The notes beneath the pieces were generated by a model, which was not told the DNA's origin, searched no databases, and was given only the letters and a program-made list of their open reading frames with translations. Positions 1 to 56,350 of a stretch of 64,000 bases of DNA are shown in pieces. Source of the stretch: Chloropicon primus. Lineage: Eukaryota. The stretch is from positions 310,001-374,000 of the forward strand of contig CP060770.1 in the NCBI GenBank assembly GCA_023205875.1. The letters run 5' to 3'. The stretch's first letter is position 1. Each line of letters opens with the position of its first letter. A program made the position numbers and the translations under genes.

Positions 1-65
1 AAAGGGAACCCCTTTCCCGTTCCCAGACCTCACCTCCCCACACGCACGTTTTTTGCCAGATGGCA

Positions 66-2302: not shown

Positions 2303-2976
2303 ATGGGAGGAAGTGTTGTTTACATCAAGAGCGAGGAGCAGTTCAACGAGATCATCGGAGCTGGAAAGCCGGTGCGTTACGAACCGTAACCGTCGCGAGG
2401 CGAATGCCTTGACTTTCGCCTAAACGATCTTTCCTCCTTCCCCCTCACGAACGAAAAAGATCTGGTGGTCTGGGGGATGGAAATTGATCTGTGGATGGTC
2501 AACGAGGGATGGCGGCGGCGGCTTTGGTTTTTACTGACTGGAGGTTTTGAATTCTTTTACTTTTATTTTTTATTTTTTGATTCTTCTTCTTCTTGGCATG
2601 GGCAAAGGTTGTGATTGACTTTACTGCAACTTGGTGTGGACCTTGCCAGCGTATTGCTCCCTTCTTCGAGGAGTTGAGCACCAAGTATCCTTCCGTCACC
2701 TTTGTCAAGGTTGACGTGGATGAGATGGACACCATCTCTGGAAACTGTGGTGTCAGGTAAGCCCAAGCGGGTCGTGGTGCTACCGTGTCCCTTCACTGAA
2801 GGGGTGCTCAAAGTTCGTCGTCGTTGTGTTCCTGACGCCGTCTCTGTCTCTCTCTCTCTGTCCGCAGGTGCATGCCTACCTTCTTGGTGTACAAGGATGG
2901 AAAGGCTCAGGCCGACGGCAGGCTCGAGGGTGCGTCCCCAGACGCCCTTGAGGAGCTCGTGAAGAAGTTTGCTTAA
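2303..2976 (+). CDS. Thioredoxin (h-type, cytosolic); exons 2303-2371, 2608-2756, 2868-2976
   Basis: Manual splicing at GT-AG gives [43 protein letters not shown]...VKVDVDE...CMPTF...FA*, with the WCGPC active site. A probable 5'UTR intron lies at ~2117-2287. Confidence 0.95.
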
Positions 2977-3112
2977 GCGTTCCAACAGTTTCGGGCACCG
3001 GCCCCGATGGATTGTTTTAATACAATATAATATCGTCAAAACAAAGGAAAGACGCGGAGGAGAAAAAGAAGATTCTTGCTTTTTTTTTTCTTGCTCATGA
3101 AAAACAAAATTA

Positions 3113-4108
3113 TCAGATCCCCTGGTACGTCACCCCTGGATTCTCCTCCTCGAACTTCCTTTCCAGTTCGAGCAAGTCGTCCTTGACGTCGCTGAACACG
3201 CTGGGATGCATTCTGTCGTGAAACAGGACGCCTTCGAGGTGGTCGTACTCGTGCTGGAAGATCCTCGCCTCAAGGCCTTCGAAAGACATTCTGCACGTCT
3301 CGCCACTGAGATCTTGGTACTCCACCAGCACGCTCTTGGGCCTCTTGACATCCCCCAGTATCTCAGGAAAGGACAGGCACCCCTCCTCGAACAGAGTCTG
3401 ACCCTTGCTTTTGCTCACGTACCTCGGATTCACGAGCACGGTCTCTTGGTCCTTCTCTGATGCCTCCCCCGTCGGGTTCCACACGAAGAGTCTTACGTTC
3501 ACGCCCACCTGAGGAGCCGCCAGGCCAATGCCTTCGGTGTCGTACATGACTTTGAACATCTCCCGGGACAGAGCCGCGAGCCGGTCGTCGAACTCGGTCA
3601 CTGTCAAGTTGGTAGCCCTGAGCTTGGGGTGAGGATACAGAAGGACTGACAGGGGGGCCGTGTAATTCAGCCCATCCCCTTGGTCCGTATCGCTCCCCCC
3701 GTTCTGCTTCTTCTTCTTCGCGCCCGTCGTCGCCTTTGCCTTGCCCTTCTTGCCCTGCTTCTTCTTCTTCTTCTTGTCCTCGGAAGAAGAAGACCTTCCC
3801 GATGCCTTGCTTTCCCTCTCACTGTCCTCCTTGAGCTCCTGAAGCTCTTTCAGGAACCCCTTGGCCGCGAACATCTTCACCGAGGGGCCAAAGCAACCTC
3901 CCTCTGTTCGACCAAGGCCCCACCAACCCAAGCTCTTGACCACCACACGACTCCTCGCTCCTCCGTTACGCGCAACGCCCGGACGTAACGGACGCGATGC
4001 CGTTGCCGCCGTCCCGCATGCTCGGCACGATGAACATGTGGAGGCCAACGCCCTCGGCACCGCTGCTCCTCGATGAGAAGGATTCCATCTGGAAGCAAGC
4101 TTTGCCAT
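3113..4108 (-). CDS. PDF1B: Peptide deformylase, plastid-targeted (PDF1B-like)
   Basis: Motifs GIGLAAPQVG, EGCLS, QHEYDH; Arg/Ser/Ala-rich transit peptide from ATG 4108. Confidence 0.93.
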   Translation of the reverse strand: MAKLASRWNPSHRGAAVPRALASTCSSCRACGTAATASRPLRPGVARNGGARSRVVVKSLGWWGLGRTEGGCFGPSVKMFAAKGFLKELQELKEDSERESKASGRSSSSEDKKKKKKQGKKGKAKATTGAKKKKQNGGSDTDQGDGLNYTAPLSVLLYPHPKLRATNLTVTEFDDRLAALSREMFKVMYDTEGIGLAAPQVGVNVRLFVWNPTGEASEKDQETVLVNPRYVSKSKGQTLFEEGCLSFPEILGDVKRPKSVLVEYQDLSGETCRMSFEGLEARIFQHEYDHLEGVLFHDRMHPSVFSDVKDDLLELERKFEEENPGVTYQGI

Positions 4109-4733
4109 CAGGAACAATTTCGAAGAAGGATTTATCTTGCTTCTCGTGATGCTTAACGAGTCGACCGACCTATCAATCGAAAGATAATGAGACGCTCTTT
4201 CGTTACGTCCCGGTCTCGACACCCTTTCCTCGCCTCTCTCGCCCGCTATCCTCCTTGAGAACCAAATCAAGGCTACGTCTTCCTTCCAGACTCAAAAAAC
4301 CTTCTACGCCAACGTTGCCGACGAAGCCGGCCAGCAAACACGTCGAGTGAACAACCGACAGAAAGCTCGCGAGACGTAGCGTGCCTTGGTGCGATCGCCC
4401 GCCACTCGAAACGCCCTCAATTCCCTTCACGACCACTCAAACCTCCTGCTCTTCCTTGTTGGTGTGGACGAACGACGACTGGAGGTCGAATTTTGTGGAT
4501 GTCAATTGATCCCGGATGAAACACAGGGAGGAAAGAGAGGCGTTTGGGTGACAAGACGAACAACAAGAAGAAGAAGGCGGTGAAGGTCCCATCCATCCTC
4601 CTCCGTCATCCATGATCCATCCATCCATCATCCTCTCTCCCCCTTTCCTCTCTCTCTCAGCATTCCCATGAGCAACACACAGAGAGAGAAAGACAGACAG
4701 GCAGACAGACAGAGAGAGAGAGCACAGCACGTC

Positions 4734-6026
4734 ATGGACAAGGCACCCCTACCACTGCCTAGGCTGGTCCTCACGGTGGAGTTCAACCTCACCGAGTAAG
4801 TCATCTCTCTCTCTCTCTCTCTCTCTACCTCCTCGTCCGTTACTGGTTTCCCTCCCCACTAACGGCTGCTCTGGTGACTCTCAAGGGTGGAGGAGGAGTG
4901 GCAGGGCAAGGACCATCAGAAGGCTTGCGAGGAAGCGGCGAGGGTCACGTCACTGCGTCCGGTGGACAGGGTGAGGGCAAGGTCGGTGAGGGTGAAGGGG
5001 ACGGCCACGACGGAGGTTGCACAAGCGCATACTTTCCAGACGGACGACGATGGCGTGGACGTGAGGCTCGAGTACTTGTACGGCAGCGATGGGGAGTCCA
5101 TGTGCATGCGGGTGATTGCCAACCTGGAAAGGGTGGATGGGGTGACCTCGCTCAGGCTGGGGCTCCATACCCTGGAAGTCCTGGAGGGAGGGCCCTCCGC
5201 GGTCTCGGGCTCGGCCGGTGGCTTCAAGAAGAATCCACCGTTCGCTTACGGCCTTCGACACACGCTGAACTTTGCGAGGATGATCGCCACCACGCTGGCC
5301 GACTTTGCCCTCGCCCGCTTGGGAGTCGTGTCCACCCTGGGAGCGAATGGGAGCGACGAGATCCCCAACTCCCCGGCGAGCCTCATCGCGTACCACTCCA
5401 AGGCGTCCGAGCCTCCACCAGAGACCGCGTTTCGCCTCTTCGGGGCCAAGGAAGGCGTGGCCAAGCCCTACCGCCAGTTTTTGTCCCTCCTGGAGTTGTG
5501 GGGGCAGAGGCTCGGGTCCTGGGGGTACTTTGTCCTGAACAATTGTTCCCCTTACGAGGTTGGGAAGGTTGTTCCCAGCGAGATCAGAAACGTTCACGAC
5601 ATGCATAGCATGGACAAGCGCTACGCCGGAGCCTTTGACCGTCCTTGCCTCCCTCCAGGGGAGGACGTTTGGCCCCTGAACAACTTTTACCACGTCAGAC
5701 GAATTTTCGTGAACAACTACGGCAGACACGTAAGTGAATTTTTTGTCCTCGCCCTGAGCGGCGCGCGTTGACACAACTGACGCTTTCCTCCCTTTCCTTC
5801 CCTGCAGGATGTGGCCACCAAGGCCAGGGCCACGGCGTTCAAGTGGGATTGGGTTGGGTTGAGCCCTGGCGTGTGGGGTGCCGGGTGCGCACAATTCAAT
5901 GGCAGGTTCTTCATGTGGATGAGGGGGACAGATGCTGGCCTGGACCTCGTTAAGGAAGAAGCGGAGAGGAGCTTTGCGCCTTTGCCTAGCGTGCGGCAAA
6001 TCCCCAAGTCAGCCCTTTTGGTGTGA
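4734..6026 (+). CDS. Hypothetical protein, spliced (main exon ~4887-5729, last exon ~5809-6026); start uncertain
   Basis: Long coding-like ORF 4887-5771 with a GTAAGT donor at 5730 and a CAG acceptor at ~5808; no recognised family. Confidence 0.5.
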
Positions 6027-6535: not shown

Positions 6536-7818
6536 ATGGATGGCATCGGCTTGGATTGGATCCTCCTTGACCCTCCCTATCCGGTTGCATTCTACCCGAT
6601 CGAGCCTTCCGTTATGGAGGTGCCCAGCGATCCAGTGGGCGTGCCTCGCGGTGGCACAAACGCTGGCACGATCGCCACGGAACCCGAGGGACCCTTGCAG
6701 CGCCTGAATCGGCTCAAGAAGTCCACAAACTCGCCCGAGAAAGTGGAGGAAGACGCTCGAGCAGACCATGGAGCTCGGAGGCCATTGCAGGGTCAGCGAC
6801 GTGGGAGGGGGGCGAGGAATGAGGGAACCCGAAGGTCCACGAGGAGGAGGAAGATCGCAAAGTCCTCCGACAGGGGGGGGCAGGCCAACGAGAAGGGGGG
6901 GACCACGAGGGAACTGAGAGGGATCTCGGCGCACCGTAACACTGGAAAGTGGGAGTCTCACCTTTGGAACCCCAAAGTGAAGAGAAAGGGTGGACGGAGG
7001 AAAACTGGGGTGCAAGTCTACGTAAGTGCGCGGCTCAACGTTGCCGTCTCGACTCTCAGTCGCCCGCATTGCAAACAGACTGACCATTGCATTGCTTCCT
7101 CAAACCCGTTCTCTCGTGGAACAGCTGGGCCAGGTAAAAACAGCCGTCCGCGAGCTCACGGGCTTGGAGCCGATTGCACTGACTTGCTGTCCCTGTCCAA
7201 CTTTCTCTGCATTGCCCTTCCTTGCATCGGTTGCAGTTCTCGACACGGGAGGAGGCCGCGCGCACTTACGACAGGGCAAAGCTAAGTCAGTTCAGGAACG
7301 AAGTGAATGCGCTAATCCAACAGGCTGCGGAGGTGAACAGCAGCGCACAGCTGGATGAGTGGTTCTCCGAGAACATGAACTACAGTTACGAAACGTACAA
7401 AGACGAGTTTCACAACGACATCTTGACCTGGTAAGCAAACCCGTCTTTCCCCCCTTTCTTGTCCCTTGTTGACAGGCTGAAACCCGGAACGAACTCTTGA
7501 ACCCTCTTGTGCAGGGAGCATGACGTTTACATCGCGAGGCTGAAACACGTTATGGGAAACGGCAAAGGGTTCAAAGGCGTCAAGGAGGTGGTCGTGGAGG
7601 GCGAGACGAAGTTCGCTGCTTCGATCACGTACCACAAGTGGGACGCAGGGACCTTAAAAAAAAACAAGATGACCAAGGAGCTCGGTGTCTTTCCTACTGA
7701 TGTTGAGGCGGCCAAGGCCTACGATAACGCTGTGCTTGAGTTCAAGAACGGCAAGGGCGTGAGAAACTTTGAGAAGTACACGTACGAGAGTGCGTGCGGC
7801 GACTCGGGTGGATCCTAA
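6536..7818 (+). CDS. Double AP2-domain transcription factor; exons 6536-7021, 7125-7133 (micro-exon), 7237-7430, 7515-7818
   Basis: AP2 repeat 1 RGISAHRNTGKWESHLW...QVY-LGQ-FSTREEAARTYDRA; repeat 2 FKGVK...ELGVFPTDVEAAKAYDNAVLEFKNGKGVRNF. Start codon is tentative. Confidence 0.88.
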
Positions 7819-8657: not shown

Positions 8658-11372
8658 TGGACAAAAAGTGTTTGGAATTCTTTGACGAGCTCGAGGACAG
8701 TCCAATGTTCAAGCAGCAAGCGGTGGACCTCGAACAAGGTGAGTGACGAGAAACGTAACGCCTCCCTTTCCGTTACGCTCCCTTCCTTCCTTCGCACGCC
8801 TGACGGCCGTTGTTTTTCTCGTCCTCTTGGCATGCAACGCGTCATGCGATGCTGATGCTGATGCTGATGAATAGGAGCGGATAGGTTGAAGGAGAGGGTG
8901 ACCAAGTTACTGAAGGGAGCGAAGAAGTATCGGGACGCGTTGGACGCGAGCTCAGCATCTCAGCAATCGTTTTGCAAAGTTTTGAGAGAGTTTTGTGGTG
9001 ACGTGACGGATGAGGACTCGATGGAGATTGGTGCTGGAGTGATCATACGATACATATCTGCATTCAATGAGTTCTCCTCGTTTTATGATCTGCTTCGATC
9101 ACAAGTGAACTTGCTGATGATAGATAGGCTGGATGAGGTGCTTCTTGGGCCCATGGGTGCGGTGAGGGATGGGAAGAAGCGCGTGGAGAGGAGCGCGGGG
9201 GACTACGACACCGCCAGGAGGAAGTTCCTGTCTCTGCAGAGGACGGTGCAGGACGAGGTGGTGGCCCAGGCGGAGAAGGATCTCAAGAATGCAAGGAATG
9301 CTTACGATGCGGATAGGTTTGGGCTGGCCAGAACGCTGCTTTCGATCCAGCACACGAAGAGGAGCTTTTTCGTGGAGACGACCAGCGGCTTGGTGGACGC
9401 GCACATGAGGTTCTTCAAGCAGGGTTTTGACTTGATCAGACAGATGGAGCCGTACATCCACGAGTCCCTTGGGCAGGTTCAGGACTGGAGGGACAGCGCC
9501 GACAAGGAGATGGACACGTTTGACGACAGCATTGCTGTTTATCTTGAGAACGCGAGCGGCAAGGGTTTGGCCCACGGTAGCAATGGGAACGAGGGGAACG
9601 ATGACCACGAGTCGGCGTCATCGTCTCAGGAAGTCACAGGGGCTCGCCACAGACACCAGCGGTCCATCTCTCAGGGCAGTCTGGGTAGCTTGGTCTCATC
9701 TCCCATGGGAAACACGGGGGGCCCAGTGCAGATGAGCGCGGCCCAGAGCCAGATGGCTCAGTCCATCGAGGCCAGCATGAGGCTTCACCATCAAAAGGGG
9801 GAAGTCGTGATTCTCAAGCAAGGCTACCTTCTCAAGAGGTCTTCCAACATCAGGGGAGATTGGAAGAGCAGGTTCTTTGTGCTGGACTCCAAGGGATCGC
9901 TGTATTACTACACGAAAAACTTGACCTTCATAAAGTCGAACGCGGCGACGACTCAGCAAAGGTTTGACCAGGGCCACGCCGGGGTCCCTCACGAGACTGT
10001 GGAGCTCCTGACATCGACGGTAAAGCTGGACGCCGATGACGACGATATGCTGAGGTTCTGCTTCAGGATTGTTTCTCCCATGAGAACGTACACGCTTCAA
10101 GCGGAGAGCGAGGCGGATAGGGCCTCCTGGGTGGGCGTGATCCAGTGCGTCATCGCTTCCCTCCTGAATGGGGTGTCAGAGGGCAAGGACGAGCCAAAGA
10201 GAAAGCTGGGAGGCATGGAACGGGGGTATGATTCACCCGGGCTGGCCTCCACCTTGTCGACTCACAGCATCTACACGGACGTGGATGTGGACGGAGAAGG
10301 TTCAGACTTGGGGAGGGAGGCATCCGAGACTGCCTACATGAGCGCGAATTCTTTTCACACCGTGCTCAGCGATGCGATGAGCAATGAGGATAACCCTGTT
10401 CTCGACGAGCTGCGGTCCATTCCAGGCAATGGGTGCTGCGCGGACTGCGGCGCCCCCATGCCAGATTGGGCGTCGTTGAACCTCACAGTCACCCTCTGCA
10501 TCGAGTGCTCCGGGACGCACCGTAAACTTGGTGTGCACATCAGTAAGGTGAGGAGCATAACTTTGGACGACAGTGCCTGGGACGAGACTACTCTCCAAGT
10601 GTTCAAAGCAGCAGGAAATGAATTTGTGAACACCATCCTCGAGAAGAGGCTGAAGGAGAAGACGGTGAAGGACGACTCGTGGCTCTGGAACGCGGACGAC
10701 AACGAGCCTATCGTGAGCCCGGACCTCTCCTCGGGAAGGGGTAGGGCCATGTCCGTTCAGATGCTGAGGAAGCCAAATCCAAACGACCCTCTTGGGATGA
10801 AGGAAGAATTCATTAGGGCAAAGTACGTCGCCAAGGTCTTCAGGGACTCCTCCCTGGAAGCTCCTCAGGAATCATTCTGGAATTCAATCTTCAGTGCGGA
10901 CTACCGAGGAATCATTGGCTCCATCTTGCAGGGAGCCAATCCAAACGAGACTCACGCGCAGAGGCTGGCGAGAAGCGTGTTTGATAAACGCGAGAAGCAA
11001 GCGCAAAGCGCGGCCACGGCAATTTATGGCAGGCCTGTAACGTCCGCTGGCAGTTCTGGGGCAGTTCCGGAGATGATGGACCATGCGAGTCTGGGCCTGA
11101 CGGCTCTGCACATCATGTCAGAACTGAAGGACAAGACCCTCCTTCTCCTTTTGACCCTGTGGACGGACGACATCAATGCAAGGGACGCGTTCGACCGAAC
11201 TCCAGTTCACTACTGCATTCTCAACCAGTGGGACGAGGGTGCCAAGCTTTTGCTCAAGAGGGGTGCGGCCAAAGAGTCCAAGGACGTGTATGGCATAACG
11301 GCTCTTGAGATGGCCATGGGCAGGGGCCAATTGACGGACGAGGGGCTGTTCAACATGCTTGCTCAAGGGTAA
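8492..11372 (+). CDS. ACAP-type ArfGAP (BAR-PH-ArfGAP-ankyrin; AGD1-4/VAN3-like); exons 8492-8738, 8875-11372
   Basis: LEDSPMFKQQ BAR start; PH LKQGYLLKRSSNIRGDWKSRFFVLD; ArfGAP zinc finger CADC...CIECSGTHR; C-terminal ankyrin repeats. Confidence 0.93.
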
Positions 11373-29276: not shown

Positions 29277-31568
29277 TCACACTTTTCTGCAGCAAGGTGG
29301 CCCAGGGTGCATCTGCTTGTCCATGATCCAATCTCTTATCTTGTGCTGCATGTCCTCGTCCAGAGTGACTGGGCTCCGCCCCCTGCTCGGGTGGAAAACC
29401 TCAAAACAGTTCTCATTGCAGCCCTTGTCAAAAGGGTTGAAGACTCTTCCGTAGCTGTCCATCGCGATATAATTGTACCTGTGGATGTTCGCCATTTCGT
29501 TTGTCGTCATGTTCTTCGCAATGGAGTTGATCTGCGCGGACAACAACGTCAGCACAGAAATAGTCAAGCTGACATCCATCACTAGGAAGCCGACAACGTA
29601 CCCAGTGTTGGGAGAGGCGTGCTCCAATTGAGAGAGCTTGTAGATCGCCATGGACACGCTGATCACGAGGGCCCACATCTGTAGAATGAGAAACACCAGA
29701 AAGTGCCACCTGTTTTCCTTTCCTATGGCGTTGCCCACCCAAGGGCAGTGGTGGTCGAAATGCTCGACGCACCTGTTTGTCATGCTGTCATGTTTCGCTC
29801 TCAAGGGCTTCACAATCCTGCACGTTGGGCAAATCTGGTTCCAGTTCCCTGTCCACAAGGCCGCAGAATCCAAATCGTAGTCCATGTCAACCGCAATCTC
29901 ATGGTCTGACTGTGCCGCCGACGCTGGGAAGAGCAGGTCGTCCTCAGCATCCCTTATTTCACCATTGCCGTCTCCCCCTGCCATGCCCTTGCTTCCATTC
30001 AAGCTCACCATCTCGGAATAAGTTCCTTTCCTCTTGACCGACTTGGTTTGCCCCGTGAGCAGGAAGCCAGGGTCCATCTTCCTGCACTGATACAGGAAAC
30101 CCAATCCCACCACCGAAGGAACAAGGACGATGAACCACCAGAAGACCGAATTGGCGGTCGCTGGAGCATTCTCTCCCTTCTTGTCAATAAATACAATCGT
30201 CTTGGTGTACCCGATCAGCAGGAGCACAATGATAGACACCAGAATGGGCAGGAACTCCAAGTCCATTATTGTCTTCACTATCTTGTTTTTCCTCGTCCAA
30301 GCCTGAGTTCTTCTCAACTCTTTCTCCATCTGGGTCGCCACGAAGGCGTGACCCTTTTGTTTCGCCAGCTCGATCGCATTCGAGCCCGTTCCATCTTTCT
30401 CCAGCAGGTACTCTTCCCTCGCATCCTGAAAGGTAGTTCCAGAGGGCTCCCCTTTGGAATCATCCCTGTCCTCGCAAAGCAAGAGGCTCGCCGACTGCAA
30501 CAGCATGTGAGTGATGTGCCCATTGCCCTTGATGGCCGCCCAGTGGAGGGGACTGCACTTCTCCTTGTCCACGTGCCTCAGATCGCTTCCAAGGTAAAGC
30601 AAGAGCTTCGCAGTATCCCCGTGGCCCTGGTAGCACGCCCAGTGCAGAGTCGACCTCAACTCATCGTCCAGAACGTCAACTATATCCGCCTTGCACTTCA
30701 TTTTCATGTAGTACAAAAACGCAGTCTGCCCATACTGCGCAGCGACGTGGGCACACGTGTACCCCTTGTTGTCCTTCACAGTAAACGAGGCATCAAAGTC
30801 GTGAAGAACCTCCAATATATTCACGCAACCTCTCACCGCCGCCCAGTGCAGCGCCGTCTGGCCCGTCGTGTTGTCCTTCGCATCGATGTTCACATGCTAC
30901 CCATCGCAAAACAAAGCAAAACGGAGAGAGAGAGAGAGAGAGAGAGAGACCATCACAAGCCAAAGAGAATCCATCATCAGTTCCATCCAGCAATCCTTTG
31001 ATGAAGACAAGACTTACCTTTCTGCATTGAGAGTCCTCGAGCAGGTACTTGGCACAGTGCACCTGGTTGTTCAAAGCCGCCCATTGCAAAGGGTCTTCGT
31101 TCCAGAACAAAGAAAAGCAGAGGGAGGCACATAGTCCGAACGAAGGAGAGAACGAGAAAGAGGTCAGCATCACGTCAAGCCTCCTGGGGTTGTCATGCAC
31201 TTTGGTCGTGACGTACAATACCCTTCAGCGTCCGGAGTGGACAACAAAGAGTAGTCCTTCTCCTTCAAGAGTTCACCGAGTCTGTCGAGGTCCCCGTAAG
31301 CGCATGCCTTGGACAATGTGTCGATGAGAGTCTTCTGCTTCGTCTCCATCGCGTCACTTCCTCCCTCGATCTCGCACGGTGTTCCATTCGAGCAACAAGT
31401 CCCTCCTGCGTTGTTGTTCTTGTCGTCGGCGCCATTCGCCGTGGGTTTCTTCACTTGTGCGAGGGAAGCGGAAGAGGAGGTGGAGGAGGTCGAAGACATC
31501 GAAGAGTCCGTCACCAACCCGAGGCTTCCCTTCCGCTTCTGGTTCCGTCGAACGGGCAAAGACGGCAT
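29277..31568 (-). CDS. Ankyrin-repeat DHHC protein S-acyltransferase (AKR1/TIP1-like), 3 exons
   Basis: Ankyrin repeats (LQWAALNN, TALHWAAVRG, SPLHWAAIKG), DHHC-CRD CPTCRIVKPLRAKH...CVEHFDHHCPWVGNAIG, TTNE and NPFDKG motifs. Start could be ATG 31568 or 31499. Confidence 0.93.
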
Positions 31569-31587
31569 GGTCGCGTCGCTTCGCTGC

Positions 31588-34106
31588 CACTACGGCCTTC
31601 TGTCTCCATGTTGGAGGTTTTCCCCTGTTGGTGGGATTCCAGTGTATACCAGTTTGGTCACACCCAAAGGACAACCCACAAGGCGTTTTCTCGTGTTCTC
31701 ACTTGCTGGACAAGGCCAATCTATAGTTACGAGGAGTTACGAGGAGGGCAGCGAGTGAAACCCTAGCAGTCATGGCGCGATCAGGGAAGCGCCGTAAGAA
31801 AAAGGAGAAGCAGGGGAGTGGCTCGACGAGTTCCACAAGGAGGTCGCACTCTGGCGAGAGTCATGCTCAGGGCGCTTCGAAGTCGGGGCAGGAGTCTCCG
31901 ACGACGAAGCGGCCGTTACGTCGGTTCTGGAATCAGGGCTTGCAGTTGCTCTACTCGTTGTGCCTGCTTCCTATCGCGGACGACCCCGCCTCTGCGGGTG
32001 AGGGTTCGAGCACGCCTCGCAAGAAGCGGGGGGGGAAGCGGAAGGAGAAGCCGCTGGACGACCCCGCCTCTGCTTTCGAGGAGGGTTCGAGCACGCCTCG
32101 CAAGAAGCGGGGGGGGAAGCGGAAGGGGAAGCCGCCGGAGGCGGCTTCCTCTGCGGGTGAGAGTTCGAGCTCGTCAGGCAAGCCTCGCAAGAAGCCTCGC
32201 AAGAAGGGCAAGAAGAAGAACAAGAAGAAGGGTAAGAAGAAGAAGAACAAGAGGGGGAAGAAAGCAGGGAAGCAGCCGGGTGGCTTGGCGGACGACAGCG
32301 TGAAGAAGACCTGGTTCTCATCGATCAAGAGAGAACTTGAAGAGGTAAAGTGTCCGAAGACGGGATGGAGGTCGTGCTTGAACCTTCCAGAAGATTCTGT
32401 GGTATCCGTCGAGACATTGCAGTCGCCCGCCAAAAGGAAGAGGGGGCAGAAACTGAAGACCTCCAAGCTATTGTCGGAGCGAACGGTGATACGGACGAGG
32501 AAGCTGAGGATGCGCTTGAACCCTGAGCAGGCGAAGTGCCTTTGCAACTGGATGGGAGCTGCGCGTTTCACATACAACAAGTGTTTGGAGGCGGTCAAGA
32601 AGGAGGGTTTTCCGCTGGTTTGGACCGTCCTGCTGGACAGATTTGTGACGGCCAAACCGCGACGCCCTGAGGTCTTTGAGGGGCTGGAGAAAGAGCTGAA
32701 AGAAATCCAATGCTCTCCACGGCCATGGACAAAACAGGAGGCAGAGCTTTTCGCGGCCAGAGAGAAGAGACTCGAGAGCCAAATTGGAGGCAGACGATTT
32801 CGCGCCGAAGTGGCCAAGGACCGGGACTACGTTAGCGGGGCCTTTGTAAATCAGAAGCATCCTTGGCTGAAGGAAACCCCCTGTGCCATCAGACAAGCTG
32901 CCGTGCGAAGTCTCATCAAGGCATGGGATTCGAACACCGCGAAGCAGGAAGCGATGAAGGAGCGCGGCGAGAAGAAGGGGCACCGCTTCGTTCTCAAGTA
33001 TCGTCAACGTCAGCAACCGAGTTCTTGGACTATTGAAATTGATGCAAGAGAGTTAAAGAACGTGGAGACGATCGAAAGACCGAGAACGAGACACAAGGAT
33101 GACAACAAGCACAAGAAACGACGCAAGTGGACCAAGCTGGAGGTGTTCAAGGAGAAGATGGCCGGCGGGCCCCTGTACTTGACGGAGGAGATCCCCGGGG
33201 GCAAGATCGAGGGTGCCGTGAAGATCACAAGAAATCGCCTTGGGCAGTTCCACATGCACATTCCCATCGCGACGCCATGGGATCGCCTGCCACCCCTGAA
33301 GCCTGAGAACAAGCGGAAGGTTGTCGCCCTGGATCCGGGAGTCAGGACCTTTCAGACGTCGTACTCGCCGCAAGAAGGCGTCGGGGAGTATGCCACGGGC
33401 GAGCGAGGCTTCGCGAGGCTGTTCAACCTCTGCTGGAGGATTGATGAGATCATTTCCGAGCGCAAAGACCCAAAGGTGAAGCTCCCTTACCTCGACCGCC
33501 GCGACTTGAAGAGACAGCAATACGCCTGCATGGAGAAACTTCGAGGTCTGACGAACGAGCTTCACAAAAAGGTAGCCAACGATCTATGCAGGAGGTTCGA
33601 CACAATCCTCCTCCCGGAGTTCAAGTCCCAAGACATGGTGAAGAAGAACAACAACGGGAGACGCCGAGTGATCAGGAAGAAGACGGCTCGCACGCTCTTG
33701 ACGTTGAGGCACTATGCGTTCAGAACGTTCTTGGCTTCCAAGGTGCTCTTGCACGGCAGTGAGCTGGCGATCGTGACGGAGGAGTACACCTCCAAGACCT
33801 GTGGCAGGTGCGGACACATCAAGAAGAACCTGGGTGGAGCAGAGGTGTACAAGTGCCAGAAGTGTGGCTTCAAGTGCGGTCGGGATGTGAACGGGGCACG
33901 CAACGTCCTCCTGAAGCACTTGCGTCAACCAAAAAGTGTGTAACTCCTCAGGGTTGCACATACGTTTGTTAGTACGGGCTGCCGTGCGTGGGCGGAAGTA
34001 TTCGTTCATGTACGGTGGAATGGTCGTGGTAGGGCCGAATTACCCTGCCGAGAAACTTACAAACTCGGTGAAACGACCTTTGCAGAAAACTAACAGGTAA
34101 GTAGTG
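31588..34106 (+). mobile_element. Putative non-autonomous Fanzor-carrying element (boundaries tentative: CACTAC...GTAGTG, GC flanks)
   Basis: Contains only the Fanzor ORF and a structured 3' RNA. Termini are 6-bp inverted CACTAC (31588-93) / GTAGTG (34101-06), each flanked by GC; a 10-bp direct repeat AGTTACGAGG x2 lies at 31725-31744. No transposase present. Confidence 0.35.
31772..33943 (+). CDS. Fanzor (eukaryotic TnpB-family RNA-guided DNA endonuclease), Fanzor2-like, 723 aa
   Basis: OrfB-type HTH RTRKLRMRLNPEQAKCLCNWMGAARFTYNKCL; RuvC-I VALDPGVRTF; Pro at the canonical RuvC-II Glu position (TILLPEF) with an alternative Glu in VTEEYTSKTC; zinc ribbon CGRC...CQKC; RuvC-III GRDVNGARN; K/R-rich NLS-like N-terminus. 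Confidence 0.95.
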   Translation: MARSGKRRKKKEKQGSGSTSSTRRSHSGESHAQGASKSGQESPTTKRPLRRFWNQGLQLLYSLCLLPIADDPASAGEGSSTPRKKRGGKRKEKPLDDPASAFEEGSSTPRKKRGGKRKGKPPEAASSAGESSSSSGKPRKKPRKKGKKKNKKKGKKKKNKRGKKAGKQPGGLADDSVKKTWFSSIKRELEEVKCPKTGWRSCLNLPEDSVVSVETLQSPAKRKRGQKLKTSKLLSERTVIRTRKLRMRLNPEQAKCLCNWMGAARFTYNKCLEAVKKEGFPLVWTVLLDRFVTAKPRRPEVFEGLEKELKEIQCSPRPWTKQEAELFAAREKRLESQIGGRRFRAEVAKDRDYVSGAFVNQKHPWLKETPCAIRQAAVRSLIKAWDSNTAKQEAMKERGEKKGHRFVLKYRQRQQPSSWTIEIDARELKNVETIERPRTRHKDDNKHKKRRKWTKLEVFKEKMAGGPLYLTEEIPGGKIEGAVKITRNRLGQFHMHIPIATPWDRLPPLKPENKRKVVALDPGVRTFQTSYSPQEGVGEYATGERGFARLFNLCWRIDEIISERKDPKVKLPYLDRRDLKRQQYACMEKLRGLTNELHKKVANDLCRRFDTILLPEFKSQDMVKKNNNGRRRVIRKKTARTLLTLRHYAFRTFLASKVLLHGSELAIVTEEYTSKTCGRCGHIKKNLGGAEVYKCQKCGFKCGRDVNGARNVLLKHLRQPKSV

Positions 34107-34125
34107 GCCGGCCTTCCTCTCCGTG
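33944..34125 (+). ncRNA. Candidate Fanzor omegaRNA (scaffold ~33960-34105 plus ~15-20 nt guide)
   Basis: Five nested hairpins with many G-U pairs, closed by the long-range stem 33964-33973/34089-34098, directly downstream of the Fanzor stop. Ends are approximate. Confidence 0.7.
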
Positions 34126-34293
34126 TTTCTCTCTTTCAGTGGAAAGGAGAACTTGCCTTTGTGCTTCCAGTATTGACTGTGATTTCCCTACCGTCCTTTC
34201 GTGACTTTTCTGTGTGCTGTTTTTGATCTGATGTCTGAACACCATAACACTCCACCAGATCTTTCGTTTTCATCCTGGCCTGTTCCTCTTCTT

Positions 34294-34339
<46 letters not shown>

Positions 34340-34519
34340 CGCTCTCTCTCTGTCTCTCTGTGTGTGTTGAAATCCATCAGGAAGAGGGGCGGATGACGAT
34401 GCCATTGATGGATGGATGGCTTGGCTTGGTGGCGGTGCCTGGAGAGGTGGAGGGCACGGGCATCTCCCCCCCCTCCTCACTGCTCTCTCGGCTCGTTTCC
34501 GTGGCGACTCTTTTTTCTT

Positions 34520-37333
34520 TTAGTACAACATATTCTTAGTTTTCTCGAGCTGCTTGGACACGAGCTTGGTGTACGTCCCCTCGAGCTTCATGAGCGAGTC
34601 GTGGGTGCCCCTCTCTGTCACCACGCCCTTGTCCACGACGCAGATTTGGTTGGCGTTTACGACCGTGCTCAGCCTGTGGGCCACCAGAACGACCGTATAC
34701 TTGTGCTCCTTGCTCTCCAAGAGCTGATCGATGGACTCCTGCACGAGGGACTCGCTCTCCGCGTCGAGGGCGCTCGTTGCCTCGTCCAGCAGAAGGAGCT
34801 TGGGCTGGCGAAGCATCATCCGGGCGATGGCAATCCTCTGCTTCTGGCCACCGCTCAGCCTGACGCCCCTCTCCCCAATTCTCGTTTGGTATCCGCTAGG
34901 GAAGCTCGTGATGAAATCGTGGGCATTGGCAGCCTTGCACGCTGTGACGAGGTCCTCCTGGGTGTACTCTCCCTCCTCGCAGCCGTACAAAATGTTCTCC
35001 TCAATCGTTTTGGCGAACATCTGGGTCTCCTGGGAGACGTACCCCACGTGCTTGTGGAGAGCCTTCAGGTTGAAGCTCTGCAGCTCCCTCCCCCCGATCA
35101 GTATCTTGCCGTTCGTGGGGTCGTAATACCTTAAAATCAGGGATATCATCGTGGTCTTTCCGCAACCGGAGGGGCCGACAAGCGCACACACTTCGCTGGA
35201 CTCCATCTTGAGGTTGATGTTCTTCAAGACGACGACGTCAGGGCGCATCTGGTACACGAAAAAGACGTTCTGGAACTCCACGCTCCAGGACATCTGACTC
35301 GTAGCGACCACGCCCGAGCTCGGGTCAATGTCAGGCAAGGAATCCATCAAGCTCAGCACCCTTTGGGCCGCCCCAGCCGCCTTGGTGAACGAATTCATCA
35401 CGCCCTGCAAGGATTGGTAGCTCGACTGAATCATGTTCCAGAACCTCAGGTACGCATAGAGCATTCCGATGCTGATGGCCTTGCTCTCGTTCTTGCTCAT
35501 GACCAGGAGTCCCCCGTAAAGAAGAATCAGCGTGCTGGCACCGTAATCAATTAAGTTTGACAACAGTATCGTTCCCGCGTTGGCAAAGGCATCTCTGATT
35601 CCCCTCTTCAGAGCCTCCTTTGTTTCCTGCCTGTAACGCTTCAACTCCACGTCCTCGGTGCTGAAAGCACGGACCGTTCTGATGTTCGCCATGGCCTCCT
35701 GGGCGATCGAGTTGGCCATGCCAATGAAAGTGAAAATCTCTCTGTTCAACCTCTGCGAGAAGACCGCATACTTGGAAGTCAAGTGAATGATCGGGAGCAT
35801 CGTCGTGAAGGCAAGCATGGAGAGCCTCCAGGATATCACGAAACACATGATGAGCCCCCCAAAGAAGAAGAAAATGCTCTGCAGGGTGGAGCCAAGGAGG
35901 TTGCTGATCGGCTGAAGCATCGCGTTGCAGTCCCAACTCATGCGGGAAATGAGGTCCCCCGTCTGGGCAGCGTCATAAAACGCGATGTCCTGCCTTATTA
36001 TCCCCTCAAACAACCTGTTCCTCGTCAAAAATGACAGCCTCCGCTGCACCACTCTGAAGCACAAGCTCCGGCACGAGCCGAAAACCCCGGAAGCCAAGGA
36101 GAGAACGACAAAGATGCGAATGTTGTGAAGGAAGGAAGGGTGGTTCTCGTCCTTGATGGCATTGAACACGTGCCCACTGAAGATCGGGGACATCAAGTTC
36201 GTGCCAGAGGCAAGCAGCAGGGACATGAACGCGCACGCAAGGAGGCGCCACTCGCTTGACGCCAGCCACAGAGCCCTATTGAAGTACTCCATCGGCTTCA
36301 GAGTGACCTCACTCTCACTTCGGACACCCTTGTCACCCCTGACACCCCCCTCACCCTCCACCCTCGCTGTCTTGCTCCCCATGCACTTCATGCAAATATC
36401 AAAATCACAAGCCCAGCACCTGTACCCCTTCAGGATCCTCTTCCTGCACAAGTCGCACGTGTGTCCCGTATTCGCTTTGCTGAAGTACAGCGGGTGGCCG
36501 TGGACATCGGGCTTGTCGATTCCTTGCTCTTTGGCGAAGGACTCAATCATCATGCAGCAAAATATGGACTCTGCGTTTATGCAGATCACCGAAAGCACCA
36601 TGAGGGACGGAAAACTCAGCGAGTGCTTGAACGTGCTCACGTCGAAGCAGACCGCCTTGATGCCCGAGTACACCTGAAACAGAGTGCTGAGCCCAAAAAT
36701 CAGCGACTCCGCAATGATCTTGTTCCTGTTCGCACGCTTCACGTCCTTGTAGAAGTGCAAGGCCTCCGCAGCCTCGATCTCTTCCTTTATCCTCTGGTGA
36801 CCCTCACCGCTTCCCCTCTTCTTCCGGTTCCACAAGCCACAGCAGGCCCGGCGGCCGTTGCCCTCGTCGTCATCTGCCACCCGGCAGTGGTGGCCATTGC
36901 CAGCGTGGTGTGCCGCAATGGGGAGCAACGGCTGCCTCAGCGTGTGGTTTGGAGTCCCCCCGTCCCTCTTCGCCCCAAAGAACCCGCCCACGCCCCCTCC
37001 GTTCACAACCTCCTCCTCCGCTTCCGGCGCGGCGGCCTTCGTGCTTCCCGTCACGACTCCCACAAACGTTAGCAGAGGCAGCACGAACATCCTCACGAGG
37101 GCCAGCACCAGCAGGTCAAGGGCCAACTTTTCAAACAGCAAGCTCAGATCCCTCTTCTTCACAAAGTCTTTCCAGGTCTGTGGATGAGCTTTGAACGAGT
37201 TCTGTGTCAGCAAAGCACTCACAGTCACATCCAAGACAAGCGCCGCGAACAAAAACAAGGGAAGCAGCCTCTTCACTCCCTTGGACACCACCAGGGAGCT
37301 CTGGTCAACCGTCCTCTTCCTCCCTCGACCCAT
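34520..37333 (-). CDS. ABCB half-transporter (TAP/MDL-like) with an extra N-terminal TM region and a Cys/His zinc-finger-like segment
   Basis: Walker A GPSGCGKT, Q-loop GYVSQE, signature LSGGQKQRIAIAR, Walker B LLLLDEATSALD, H-loop VAHRLST; ABC membrane domain. Confidence 0.93.
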   Translation of the reverse strand: MGRGRKRTVDQSSLVVSKGVKRLLPLFLFAALVLDVTVSALLTQNSFKAHPQTWKDFVKKRDLSLLFEKLALDLLVLALVRMFVLPLLTFVGVVTGSTKAAAPEAEEEVVNGGGVGGFFGAKRDGGTPNHTLRQPLLPIAAHHAGNGHHCRVADDDEGNGRRACCGLWNRKKRGSGEGHQRIKEEIEAAEALHFYKDVKRANRNKIIAESLIFGLSTLFQVYSGIKAVCFDVSTFKHSLSFPSLMVLSVICINAESIFCCMMIESFAKEQGIDKPDVHGHPLYFSKANTGHTCDLCRKRILKGYRCWACDFDICMKCMGSKTARVEGEGGVRGDKGVRSESEVTLKPMEYFNRALWLASSEWRLLACAFMSLLLASGTNLMSPIFSGHVFNAIKDENHPSFLHNIRIFVVLSLASGVFGSCRSLCFRVVQRRLSFLTRNRLFEGIIRQDIAFYDAAQTGDLISRMSWDCNAMLQPISNLLGSTLQSIFFFFGGLIMCFVISWRLSMLAFTTMLPIIHLTSKYAVFSQRLNREIFTFIGMANSIAQEAMANIRTVRAFSTEDVELKRYRQETKEALKRGIRDAFANAGTILLSNLIDYGASTLILLYGGLLVMSKNESKAISIGMLYAYLRFWNMIQSSYQSLQGVMNSFTKAAGAAQRVLSLMDSLPDIDPSSGVVATSQMSWSVEFQNVFFVYQMRPDVVVLKNINLKMESSEVCALVGPSGCGKTTMISLILRYYDPTNGKILIGGRELQSFNLKALHKHVGYVSQETQMFAKTIEENILYGCEEGEYTQEDLVTACKAANAHDFITSFPSGYQTRIGERGVRLSGGQKQRIAIARMMLRQPKLLLLDEATSALDAESESLVQESIDQLLESKEHKYTVVLVAHRLSTVVNANQICVVDKGVVTERGTHDSLMKLEGTYTKLVSKQLEKTKNMLY

Positions 37334-53744: not shown

Positions 53745-54329
53745 TGTAATGGTACCGCTGAGAGAGCTTGTGTTCGTGGTATCGGTCGACAAAAGGTCTC
53801 GAAACTTTTCTGTTCCCCTCGTCCCCCGTCGTTGTTCTTCGCGAAAAGTTGCCGTTCAACGCACAAAGAGTCTTGGTCAAGTCAAGTGTACCAATTTCAT
53901 CTTACTTCCAGGAAGGGGAAAGGGAGGGAGAGGAGAGAAATGAGTGTACGAAGTTGGAAGTTCAAAACAACGTCTTGCAAAACGAGTGTCAAAAGGACGG
54001 AGAGATACGCGCAGAAGACGACGAAGAGATGAGTGAGGACTATACTGGCAGAAGTGAGACTAACTGAGGGGAGCGGGAAGTCGCACTCTCTCTCCTTGTC
54101 CTTCTCTTCTCTCTGCCAAAGGATGCATTTTTGTGGTGACGATGGTGGTGTGGGGGGCACATGGACAGGCAAGCCATGGCTGGAAGCACTGCTTCGTGCA
54201 CTTGAAACAAGTTCCAAGCTCGAAAGAGTTGGTCAAAAAATGCGGCCAAGGGCGATAGAGACCCGTGAAGGTTTAGGTTTAGGCCCAGCTCAAGGGAGTG
54301 AGACTCTTCCTCACAGTGAAGGGTCGATT

Positions 54330-56350
54330 GATTGAGGTCAATTGGATAATAACTGATTGGTATTAGTAATGGGTGCGGTGGACTCGGTCAATCATAAACG
54401 GGTGAATCACTGTCTATTGCCCACCCTCTCATTCGGGGCTCGTCCATCGAAAAACTTCGTACCAGTTGGCACCAGTCAGGATACATAGAAGATCTCCCGA
54501 AAAACAAAATGACAAAATGTAGAATTAAGCTTGTGGCTCAACGCCAATCTTGATGAGACTGGAGTAAGCGCAGGTGCACGGGATGCAATACCACACCAAA
54601 CGCAGGAATTCACGGATCAAAACTATTACACAACAAGATAAAAGAAAAAAGAATCGATGTTTTGGCTGACTCTATCTTCAGCTGACGATTCTATCTCGAT
54701 CAAACACGCAAAAATGACAAATTAAATTAAGTTCCACGGCACCTCTTTTAAGAATCAATTTGCAATATACGTAAAGGCTTATCATTCAGACGTTTGCGTT
54801 TCGTTCATGATCACGGAGTCACATTCATAATTCCTCTCTGAAATCAATCGAGTCCAACTTTGTTCTCGAATAAGCGAGTCGAAATGAAATCGTGGAAATC
54901 GAGATATTCTCTTCTTGTTCTATTTCCTGGAAGCAAAATAGAAAATCGATTTATCTCTTGTGAGATAGCATATGATGCTCACCAAGCTATGACAATATTG
55001 GACAAGAATGCAGAAGAGAAGCATAAACACTCGAACAAATATTTTAGAATATTATATGCATCGATTTTGGGAAAAAGCAACGGGTGTGCAAGAAGCAGAG
55101 TGACAATTAAATATTTTCCGAAGCGTGGATTACGCACTTTCTCTTGGTAATTCTCTCTACTTTCTATCTCTACTGCAATGAATCGGAAAAACATTATCAG
55201 TATATGTTTCATAAGATAGAATAATTGCCAATATACTTTTGTCCTTCTTTACAGCTTAGACATCAATGCATACTTTAATTTTAGATGAGTCAACGATTAT
55301 GCACAATAGAGTAAAAATGAATATTTATAATAAAGAAAATATTACGTTTTGACGATAAATAAAATGATGGCGGAAGTTAGCATTGAATGATTTTAAATAT
55401 TTGCTCTTGTGTGAATATGATAAACTTTGAATGCAAGAAATTGAAACAATATGAAGTAAATGTTGCGGTTTTACGCAAAAGACAAAGATATTGGGTTTGA
55501 AGAAATAAGTCAAATAACGAGAACCGCGACAAAAAGCATCAAATTCATCGGCTTTGCACTTGGACATGCTGCTGCGTAATTTGAAAGACAAGCATTGATG
55601 CCATAAAATATTGTTGAAGCCAAATTGAATTGATGCATTGCTGTTCTTTCGGTGATGCCCTGTACCAGCCATTTGGAATGGTTTGAGAAATAGTTCGGAA
55701 GACGTTTCAGTTCTTGCAATGTACATAGTAAGAGGAATATCATTTTGTGTGCAAGATATTATTAATGTATATTCCAGTTCAAGTGCTAGAAAAGGCACTA
55801 TTTCATAACTGCTGCTGCAAGAAGGAAGAGGCATCCTTGAAAAATGCCAGCGATCTGTGTCTTTGCCCGCAGCTTGTCGTTTCTTTTCCATGCATGCGAT
55901 ATAATGAGTCCGCACGAGTTATTTGTGTACTGGTTCAGGGCACGTAAAGGTGAATTCGGCGGTGCCTCTTGAGTTTATAAAGTCGCCCTAGGATGCTGGA
56001 TATTGGCATCTTCTTCTTGACTCTGCTTGTAGAGCAATTGGCAACAATGAAAAACCGAACAACCTTGCTGTTTCTCTTTGATCGCCAAAGGACGATGTCC
56101 TTAACCGTGCAACATCTCTCGCTTTTGAGGAATACGCAGTGGGGCAAGATCGTCCTTTAGTTGGGATTGGGGCCCTGCAAGAGGGAGGCTCTCACTATCC
56201 CATAACAGTGTCACCACAATAATAAAATTCCGCAGAACAAGAACAAAGGTTAAAAGAGAAAGTAAAGTCGTCGTGTACTTGACGTTTCGCCCTGCACGAA
56301 CACACGACCACCGACCCCGTTCGCCAAGCTTTGCTTCTCTGGTACTTTCG
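54330..56350. other. AT-rich, apparently gene-free island
   Basis: Lines 55321-55440 are ~23-25% GC by manual count, against a GC-rich gene background; only short unrecognisable ORFs. Confidence 0.85.

Follow-up and report, generated by a model that had tools for sequence, protein, structure and literature searches.

The window analysed here, a stretch of 64,000 nucleotides of contig CP060770.1 from the marine green alga Chloropicon primus (positions 310,001 to 374,000 of the forward strand), carries an open reading frame (ORF) for a Fanzor2, a eukaryotic relative of the RNA-guided nuclease TnpB, at 31772..33943 on the plus strand, on which all features lie unless stated otherwise. An earlier note, made from the sequence alone, had described it as an intact gene with no neighbouring transposase. 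The ORF is open throughout its 723 amino acids (aa), and every motif named in that note was found: ALDPG with RuvC-I Asp521 (33332..33334), LLPEF with Pro615 (33614..33616) at the position of the canonical RuvC-II Glu, VTEEYTSKTC with the alternative RuvC-II Glu670 (33779..33781), a four-Cys zinc ribbon (C677, C680, C695 and C698; 33800..33865) and RD with RuvC-III Asp705 (33884..33886). In correction of the note, the gene is the cargo of a 2,641-bp element (31609..34249) with termini and a target-site duplication (TSD).

The replacement of the RuvC-II Glu was borne out, since the canonical Glu of a Cas12m chain aligns to Pro615 in a PDB sequence match, and of the EE pair it is Glu670, not Glu671, that is conserved in all 17 rows of alignment A1, as are Asp521 and Asp705, at identities down to 42%. 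Six residues stand between Glu670 and the first zinc-finger Cys (C677), which fits the shifted Glu of Fanzors, as do the DPG of RuvC-I, the C4 zinc ribbon followed by RD, and the TnpB-like fold (Foldseek, VIA-align). In the profile search that the note had proposed, HTH_OrfB_IS605 (aa 240-276, 32489..32599, E 2e-6) and TNB (aa 647-712, E 9e-18) pass the Pfam cut-off, and NCBIfam guided_TnpB reaches 92.8 bits, below its cut-off of 100. The top PDB match is the mimivirus Fanzor2 9b0l, both by sequence (E 2.4e-19) and by Foldseek (E 1.5e-14), while VIA-align ranked ISDra2 TnpB first (Z 18.5, root-mean-square deviation 4.0, 322 aligned) and 9b0l sixth (Z 15.3, root-mean-square deviation 4.1, 361 aligned). 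The predicted structure has a mean pLDDT (predicted local distance difference test score) of 63.9, with residues 1-234 mainly below 50. The basic N-terminal region carries a duplication of 81-bp period (32000..32154), whose unit count differs between element copies and which is likely a nuclear localisation signal (NLS). The host-like base composition also holds: GC (0.57) and third-position GC (0.74) fall inside the ranges of five neighbouring ORFs (0.53-0.60 and 0.70-0.79). Judged from these residues alone, the enzyme would be catalytically competent. Its assignment to Fanzor2 and its IS607 ancestry, both proposed in the note, are supported by the best PDB match, by the TnpB-like HTH and by a relic of an IS607 transposase inside the ORF.

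The element is a recently mobile, multi-copy, non-autonomous DNA transposon with Fanzor2 cargo. It runs from TGTTG to TAACA between a left (31604..31608) and a right (34250..34254) copy of the 5-bp TSD CTCCA, and its ends are placed by a depth step and a junction at 31609 and by junctions at 34249-34250; the same ends recur in runs X2 and X8, in X3, X6 and X7, and in three published insertions. The CTCCA duplication is by itself at chance level (one found against about 0.9 expected) but falls on these independently seen junctions, and the inverted repeat is perfect over 4 bp only (TGTT...AACA) and degenerate beyond. In the DNA runs, contig depth inside the element is 13-20 times that of the flanks (flanks 190-265; X1 4078-4904, X2 2696-3573; single contigs), though such depths do not give the true number of copies. 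Elsewhere in the 64-kb window, neither another copy of the element nor a fragment of it turned up. The 90%-identity protein cluster of this Fanzor, named C. primus 'putative IS605 transposase', has 46 members, of which 40 were covered, and the closest database proteins carry that name too. According to Lemieux 2019 (PMC6731263; this and the other published sources cited here were covered in part), the genome contains 25 dispersed members of this element. In the indel table of its supplementary data, three of the six heterozygous insertions of at least 1 kb are this element, the empty site of a second, heterozygous insertion lies at 57..64 of the window, and other rows put a copy at the matching distance of the present locus. 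Because the table contains both this copy and heterozygous insertions, the locus is no misassembly and the family has been recently mobile; the possibility of a contaminant or misassembly, which the note had named as a refuter, is further countered by the intron-bearing neighbours, by named C. primus copies and by a contig across the junction (30959-31635) that shows no difference between the DNA runs X1 and X2. Copies are near-identical, and broken ones exist, such as P0123.

The ends bear on how the element is classified and moved. TIR-like ends (terminal inverted repeats), a TSD, several copies and no working transposase are features of Fanzor2*, and the stops in the tnpA frame and the TSD set the element apart from an autonomous IS607. 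The TGTNR termini (TGTTG, TGTTA) with a TSD of 4-5 bp (CTCCA) are those of Ginger2/TDD, as in TDD-4/5 (PMC2836005, PMC10045372), whose TIRs of about 50-180 bp are lacking here, where only 4 bp are perfect, and for that reason the element is not filed as Ginger2; TGTNR ends with 5-bp duplications also occur in long terminal repeat (LTR) elements and in IS3/IS481 types. From its ends, we consider it moderately likely that the element is moved in trans by an integrase-type (Ginger2-like) transposase. The reading as a solo LTR is unsupported: PlantLTRdb reports no intact LTR element in C. primus (PMC10025401), the part of the annotation searched yields telomerase as its only reverse transcriptase, and all right flanks differ. 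A CACTA-like reading (CACTAC at 31588, GTAGTG near 34102) was rejected, as the junctions map to 31609 and 34249. Of the two fates offered by the note, mobilised in trans or domesticated, the first is supported, and the second is not in view of the many copies, the TSD and the heterozygous insertions.

The note had seen no neighbouring transposase; a decayed IS607 transposase nevertheless lies within the first third of the ORF, in another frame. This TnpA serine recombinase relic (31825..32514, -1 frame) consists of two pieces, 31825-32010 and 32269-32514, with a K/R-rich expansion between them and with stops in its frame. In the metagenomic loci L022 and L023, what underlies the N-terminal part of the Fanzor in the -1 frame is IS607 TnpA by the Resolvase profile (E 2.5e-10 and 1.8e-8) and matches transpos_IS607 (E 1.4e-28 and 4.6e-25) below that profile's cut-off. 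The L022 frame in turn finds the window's pieces by tblastn (32269-32514, E 5e-9; 31825-32010, E 0.009); the pieces themselves match neither profile, the relic being recognised by tblastn with relatives. The N-terminal 237 aa of the Fanzor overprint this dead frame. Among 24 related loci, 20 have a TnpA-like match and four have none; 19 of the matches, two of them self-matches, share 216-450 nt with the open frame of the Fanzor. In L001, L004-L018, L020 (viral), L022 and L023, tnpA, read in the -1 frame, is nearly wholly contained in the open Fanzor2 frame, again with 216-450 nt shared. The N-terminal extension of the mimivirus Fanzor2 has been reported to bear the NLS, RuvC-R and the thumb (PMC11832414). 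Comparison of the frames suggests that the Fanzor2 N-terminal extension likely arose by overprinting on tnpA, for which no earlier statement was found in the parts of the open Fanzor literature covered.

Behind the stop codon lies a predicted omegaRNA (guide RNA) scaffold (33944..34096; from folding and relatives), which ends in CAG where relatives end in CGG, the old IS607 right end. Its segment 33950-34096 (147 nt) folds at z -4.35, equalled by none of 200 shuffles, while three neighbouring controls (tail, left end and ORF end) are unstructured (z +0.5 to +0.9). A motif script placed a hairpin loop, TTGTTAGT (33966..33973), as the predicted 5' strand of a pseudoknot, and ACTAAC (34089..34094) as the predicted 3' strand; from the stop codon to 34260, nothing else is complementary to the 6-mer of the loop. 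The window, L022 and L023, the three motif carriers, all have the loop TTGTT(A/G)GT and a single complement AC(T/C)AAC followed by two bases (AG, GG and GG, respectively), and both the pseudoknot pairing (A-U against G-C) and the stem (CGT/ACG against GGT/ACC) covary among them. The 3' strand was left unaligned by MAFFT, and the anchors were located by script. Neither L024 nor the 21 viral loci show the motif pair; 19 of the viral loci have CGG at most 125 nt from the stop (two are incomplete), which is a weak criterion. As to sampling, the metagenome search gave three loci from 229 stretches, the viral search with A1 gave relatives in 21 of 48 stretches, all at no more than 42% identity, and that with the close alignment A2 gave relatives in none of 49. 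Rfam returned one chance-level match over 31500-34400 (E 0.76), and neither a ribozyme nor a group I intron.

In the mimivirus Fanzor2 structure (PMC11832414) the pseudoknot occupies -4 to 0 and includes a paired C(-2), and applying this register to the window puts guide position +1 at 34097 and the scaffold end at 34096. IS607-type ends terminate in CGG (PMC13565253). In IS607 TnpB the next flanking base joins the scaffold. The boundary thus very probably falls at 34096, 153 nt inside the element. As a practical point for tests of the enzyme, the scaffold likely ends there and not at the element end.

Directly at this predicted end stands a perfect splice donor, AG|GTAAGT (GTAAGT at 34097..34102), so that the 153-nt tail of the element (34097..34249) is likely the 5' part of an intron; its length compares with a mean host intron of 152 bp (PMC6731263). 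The donor 8-mer AGGTAAGT occurs five times in the window against 0.71 expected, and one of these copies is a host-intron donor seen spliced in X3. GTAAGT is constant while bases 34103-34120 differ between element copies, and both published insertions with a visible right end have donor and tail. Moreover, the last 79 nt of the tail are AG-free, 65% pyrimidine and contain branch-like CTGAT/ATAAC. One diverged contig ends the scaffold in GG instead of AG and retains GTAAGT; the diverged subfamily is about 90% alike and departs from the window sequence at 33983, with loose ends at 32375 and 33983 in X3 and, for the diverged contig, also in X7.

Contig depth across 34096-34105 falls from 282 to 34 in X3, from 1888 to 50-105 in X6, from 1280 to 141-170 in X7 and from 28 to 0 in X5, so that all four RNA-type assemblies drop at least 7-fold at 34096. 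Five loose-end rows at 34096-34098 lead into four different non-element continuations, in contigs of up to 1,555 nt; these exits come from X5, X6 and X7 (three studies), one continuation is common to X6 and X7, and the first base is G in three and T in one. The DNA runs, by contrast, hold their depth past 34096 (bins of 5708, 6695 and 7111 in X1; 6429, 11120 and 6966 in X2), and a loose end at 34096 is absent among the 24 rows listed for them. An internal intron of 43 or 74 nt, ending at the AG at 34139 or 34170, was rejected, as no such joint appears in any of the four RNA-type runs. Taken together, RNA probably leaves the element at 34096 by spliceosomal splicing.

A history that would account for this arrangement starts with a whole IS607 unit (tnpA, the overlapping Fanzor2 and the right-end RNA ending in CGG), which would have been enclosed in a TG...CA-ended carrier. 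Inside this carrier tnpA would then have decayed, and the new 153-nt tail would have separated the scaffold from the variable flank that normally gives the guide. Together with a host AG, the donor at the old end and, close to the new one, the pyrimidine tract and its branch point would restore a locus-specific guide, with the scaffold spliced onto a guide from the host sequence downstream of each copy. Once loaded, the enzyme might cut near the insertion, and homologous repair would retain or copy the element in a diploid, an idea drawn from the analogy with TnpB homing (PMC10690162, PMC13565253). We therefore offer, as a tentative overall reading, a trans-mobilised Fanzor2 transposon whose splicing restores a flank-derived, locus-specific guide; that the spliced RNAs are working guides is itself a proposal with somewhat less than an even chance. 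A further version, in which the nuclease is programmed by the spliceosome, the AG of the intron replaces the IS607 GG core as target-adjacent motif (TAM), and acceptor choice retargets the enzyme without any change in DNA, is rather unlikely.

A number of observations weigh against this reading. The main objection is that a spliced guide would match the occupied as well as the empty allele, leading to self-cutting unless the TAM or chromatin discriminates. In the diverged subfamily, eight of the 11 changed C-terminal codons are non-synonymous (12 differences listed of 15-16, from one diverged contig), with no purifying signal, and the searched part of the annotation yielded no partner transposase; it lacks any 'DDE' entry, and its single 'integrase' hypothetical is unexpressed. 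With regard to the scaffold, the covariation comes from three sequences only, L024 is without the motif, and L022 and L023 fold no better than shuffles (z -0.24 and -1.49). The AG-free tail is weak support, since 874 of 20,000 shuffles have one. As for the RNA, all runs are unstranded contigs, whose depth measures expression poorly; X3 alone is demonstrably RNA (host introns spliced), X5-X7 being RNA by guess, and X3 has a contig end and the depth drop at 34096 but no listed loose end there. A further 74 loose-end rows lie beyond the 24 listed and 17 RNA-run pieces beyond those listed, and runs X15-X17 (small shares) were left out of the RNA analysis. The continuations led to no acceptor: none of the four matches the window exactly (one matches at 9246 with one mismatch, as do 4 of 100 shuffles), and in five right flanks (window, X3, X7 and two published) what follows the first AG differs from all of them. 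No spliced joint was seen at this locus, which leaves the expression of this particular copy hypothetical.

Some of these points are better accommodated if splicing is real but disarms or bypasses the nuclease: guides would start behind AG while the ancestral TAM likely ends in GG, leaving no cuttable site, and a young element that gives a promoter and first exon to its flanks would carry the Fanzor along, for the most part harmlessly. Such a reading removes the self-cutting problem and agrees with the GGG TAM of the mimivirus Fanzor2 (PMC10530073) and with the codon changes of the diverged subfamily; the copies are so similar that intact ORFs require no selection, and IStrons offer a precedent in which splicing competes with omegaRNA function (PMC10690162). 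It explains less well why the donor sits exactly at the predicted boundary, why GTAAGT is kept while the bases behind it vary, why the catalytic triad is invariant throughout A1 and why the scaffold is strongly structured, and we regard it as unlikely.

It is quite improbable that the unspliced read-through is the working omegaRNA, with terminal repeat and TSD in the scaffold, the next flank as guide and the spliced species as by-products, although this is what PMC10711439 proposes for Fanzor2*s generally. Contigs running past 34249 do occur in X3, X6 and X7, and the terminal TAACA could by eye pair with the loop TGTTA. The depth of these contigs, however, is only 16-164, compared with 282-1888 ahead of the donor, the tail is unstructured (z +0.50), and the full 6-mer complement is present at 34089 only.

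The old IS607 end coincides with the donor, so an identical breakpoint is expected if the exits are DNA junctions, in which case a minority of tail-less, IS607-like copies would give most of the RNA, with ordinary flank guides and nothing spliced. The continuation contigs of 817 and 1,555 nt have no merging path, DNA depth at 34105 is only 1464 in X1 and 1920 in X2, and most loose-end rows lie beyond those listed, all of which suits this explanation. On the other hand, tnpA is dead, DNA depth stands at 6948 (X1) and 6614 (X2) at 34183, the tail is present at both visible right ends of published insertions, the G or T that opens the continuations gives no fixed GG core, and at least four short copies would each need to out-express all others; the explanation is quite improbable. 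That the Fanzor has been domesticated as a host gene and is regulated jointly with the adjacent housekeeping gene is hardly credible: the host-like composition, the listing of this copy at the corresponding place of the published table and a left junction without a branch in X1 and X2 would fit, but some 25 dispersed near-identical copies, the TSD, the heterozygous presence or absence of others and broken copies (P0123) do not.

The element family and the gene are already in print (Yoon; Lemieux). Yoon et al. 2023 (bioRxiv 10.1101/2023.08.09.552727, PMC10711439) described the family as Fanzor2*, non-autonomous, with degenerate TIRs, a variable 5-nt TSD and a partner not found, and copies such as UPR03652.1 (P0003, 98% identity over the part searched) belong to their curated set. 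The parts of their text covered place TIR and TSD in the scaffold and contain no splice donor, tnpA relic or superfamily, whereas the scaffold here appears to end 153 nt earlier; folding, the pseudoknot register and RNA depth speak against TIR and TSD as parts of the scaffold at this element. PMC12633428, in the part covered, only cites the C. primus Fanzor. Three additions are without an earlier report found: the tnpA overprint, the scaffold end on a donor at 34096 and the RNA exit there.

Like the mimivirus ApmFz2 (9b0l; PMC11832414, PMC10530073), the present Fanzor has a RuvC domain with DPG and a shifted Glu, a zinc ribbon, a basic disordered N-terminus and a (here predicted) pseudoknot adjoining the guide. 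A canonical IS607 Fanzor2 has neither TIR nor TSD and takes its guide straight from the flank, while here tnpA is dead and a donor-bearing tail lies between. With Ginger2/TDD the element shares TGTNR at both ends and the 5-bp TSD, and it differs in the missing long TIRs and in that no integrase-like gene was found. As in IStrons (PMC10690162), the omegaRNA would end on a splice site; in IStrons, however, that site is the 3' splice site of a self-splicing group I intron, and splicing destroys the omegaRNA, whereas the site here is a spliceosomal 5' donor, and splicing would retain the scaffold and swap the guide. Among the literature on Fanzor or TnpB with splicing (including PMC10432273, PMC10530073, PMC3627910 and a 2026 review; open-access coverage, with no Repbase), only IStrons were found in the parts covered.

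Introner transposons (Huff 2016) reportedly bring one splice site with them, while the second may be borrowed from the host; these are excised whole from host mRNA, while here only the 3' tail of the element would go.

Several related loci and proteins show other arrangements. In P0029 (947 aa), P0052, P0137 and P0138 (921 aa), which are not in the window, an XPG/EXO1-like nuclease (XPG_N, XPG_I) stands in frame before a Fanzor2-type region; they come from ENA assemblies, in which their contigs measure 3.4-8.4 kb, and fall into two distinct clusters at 90% identity. A fusion that ties a resection-type nuclease to an RNA-guided cutter could suit homing, or these could be in-frame insertions. 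P0028 (885 aa), a single member, joins a metallo-beta-lactamase-fold stretch and Fanzor2 in one ORF and may be a read-through. In the database gene models P0005, P0169 and P0180 the Fanzor ORF of other copies is joined to downstream host coding sequence on the same strand, one with a SET domain; as the joins precede the stop codon, they were left out of the evidence for splicing. The predicted right end of L022 (2433-2630) abuts, by eye, alpha/beta-hydrolase-like coding sequence, as in a plain IS607 insertion in a gene. L024, likely an algal-virus contig, has a Fanzor flanked by duplicated blocks (700-1460 and 3350-3660) and a short tandem repeat, and gave no tnpA match. As well, heterozygous insertions of 2,531 and 1,534 bp at position 974796 of chromosome 1 and position 74671 of chromosome 3 lack the ends of the element in their first 400 bases and are possible second mobile families.

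The host neighbourhood agrees with the head-to-head layout given in the note, the housekeeping neighbour being an ankyrin-repeat DHHC palmitoyltransferase gene (29277..31568, minus strand; ORF and Pfam), of which two introns are spliced in X3. The layout arises because the element inserted 40 nt upstream of the start codon of this gene. An X3 contig at the DHHC gene (31568-31609) has its 5' end at 31599, no more than 10 nt from the left end of the element, and the element may have displaced or replaced the promoter of that gene. On the other side, an ABC transporter gene (34520..37333, minus strand; ORF and Pfam) is convergent with the Fanzor. Farther away, GC drops to 0.36-0.44 (from about 0.55) in an island at 54000-56250, where TTTAGG repeats precede a minus-strand stretch that stays open for 197 codons, and the right-end 8-mer of the element recurs at 56200, probably by chance.

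The question behind this locus is how Fanzors keep a programmable guide after passing from IS607 to eukaryotic transposons, for which the published answer is that new ends were absorbed in the scaffold. The overlap with tnpA offers an origin by overprinting for the Fanzor2 N-terminal extension. If the guide-restoring reading is true, splicing the new end out would be a second, eukaryote-specific answer, and the spliceosome would make or disable the guide of a nuclease, a mirror image of the bacterial IStrons. This would be cheap to check, as the alga can be cultured, its 17-Mb genome is finished and RNA-seq already exists.

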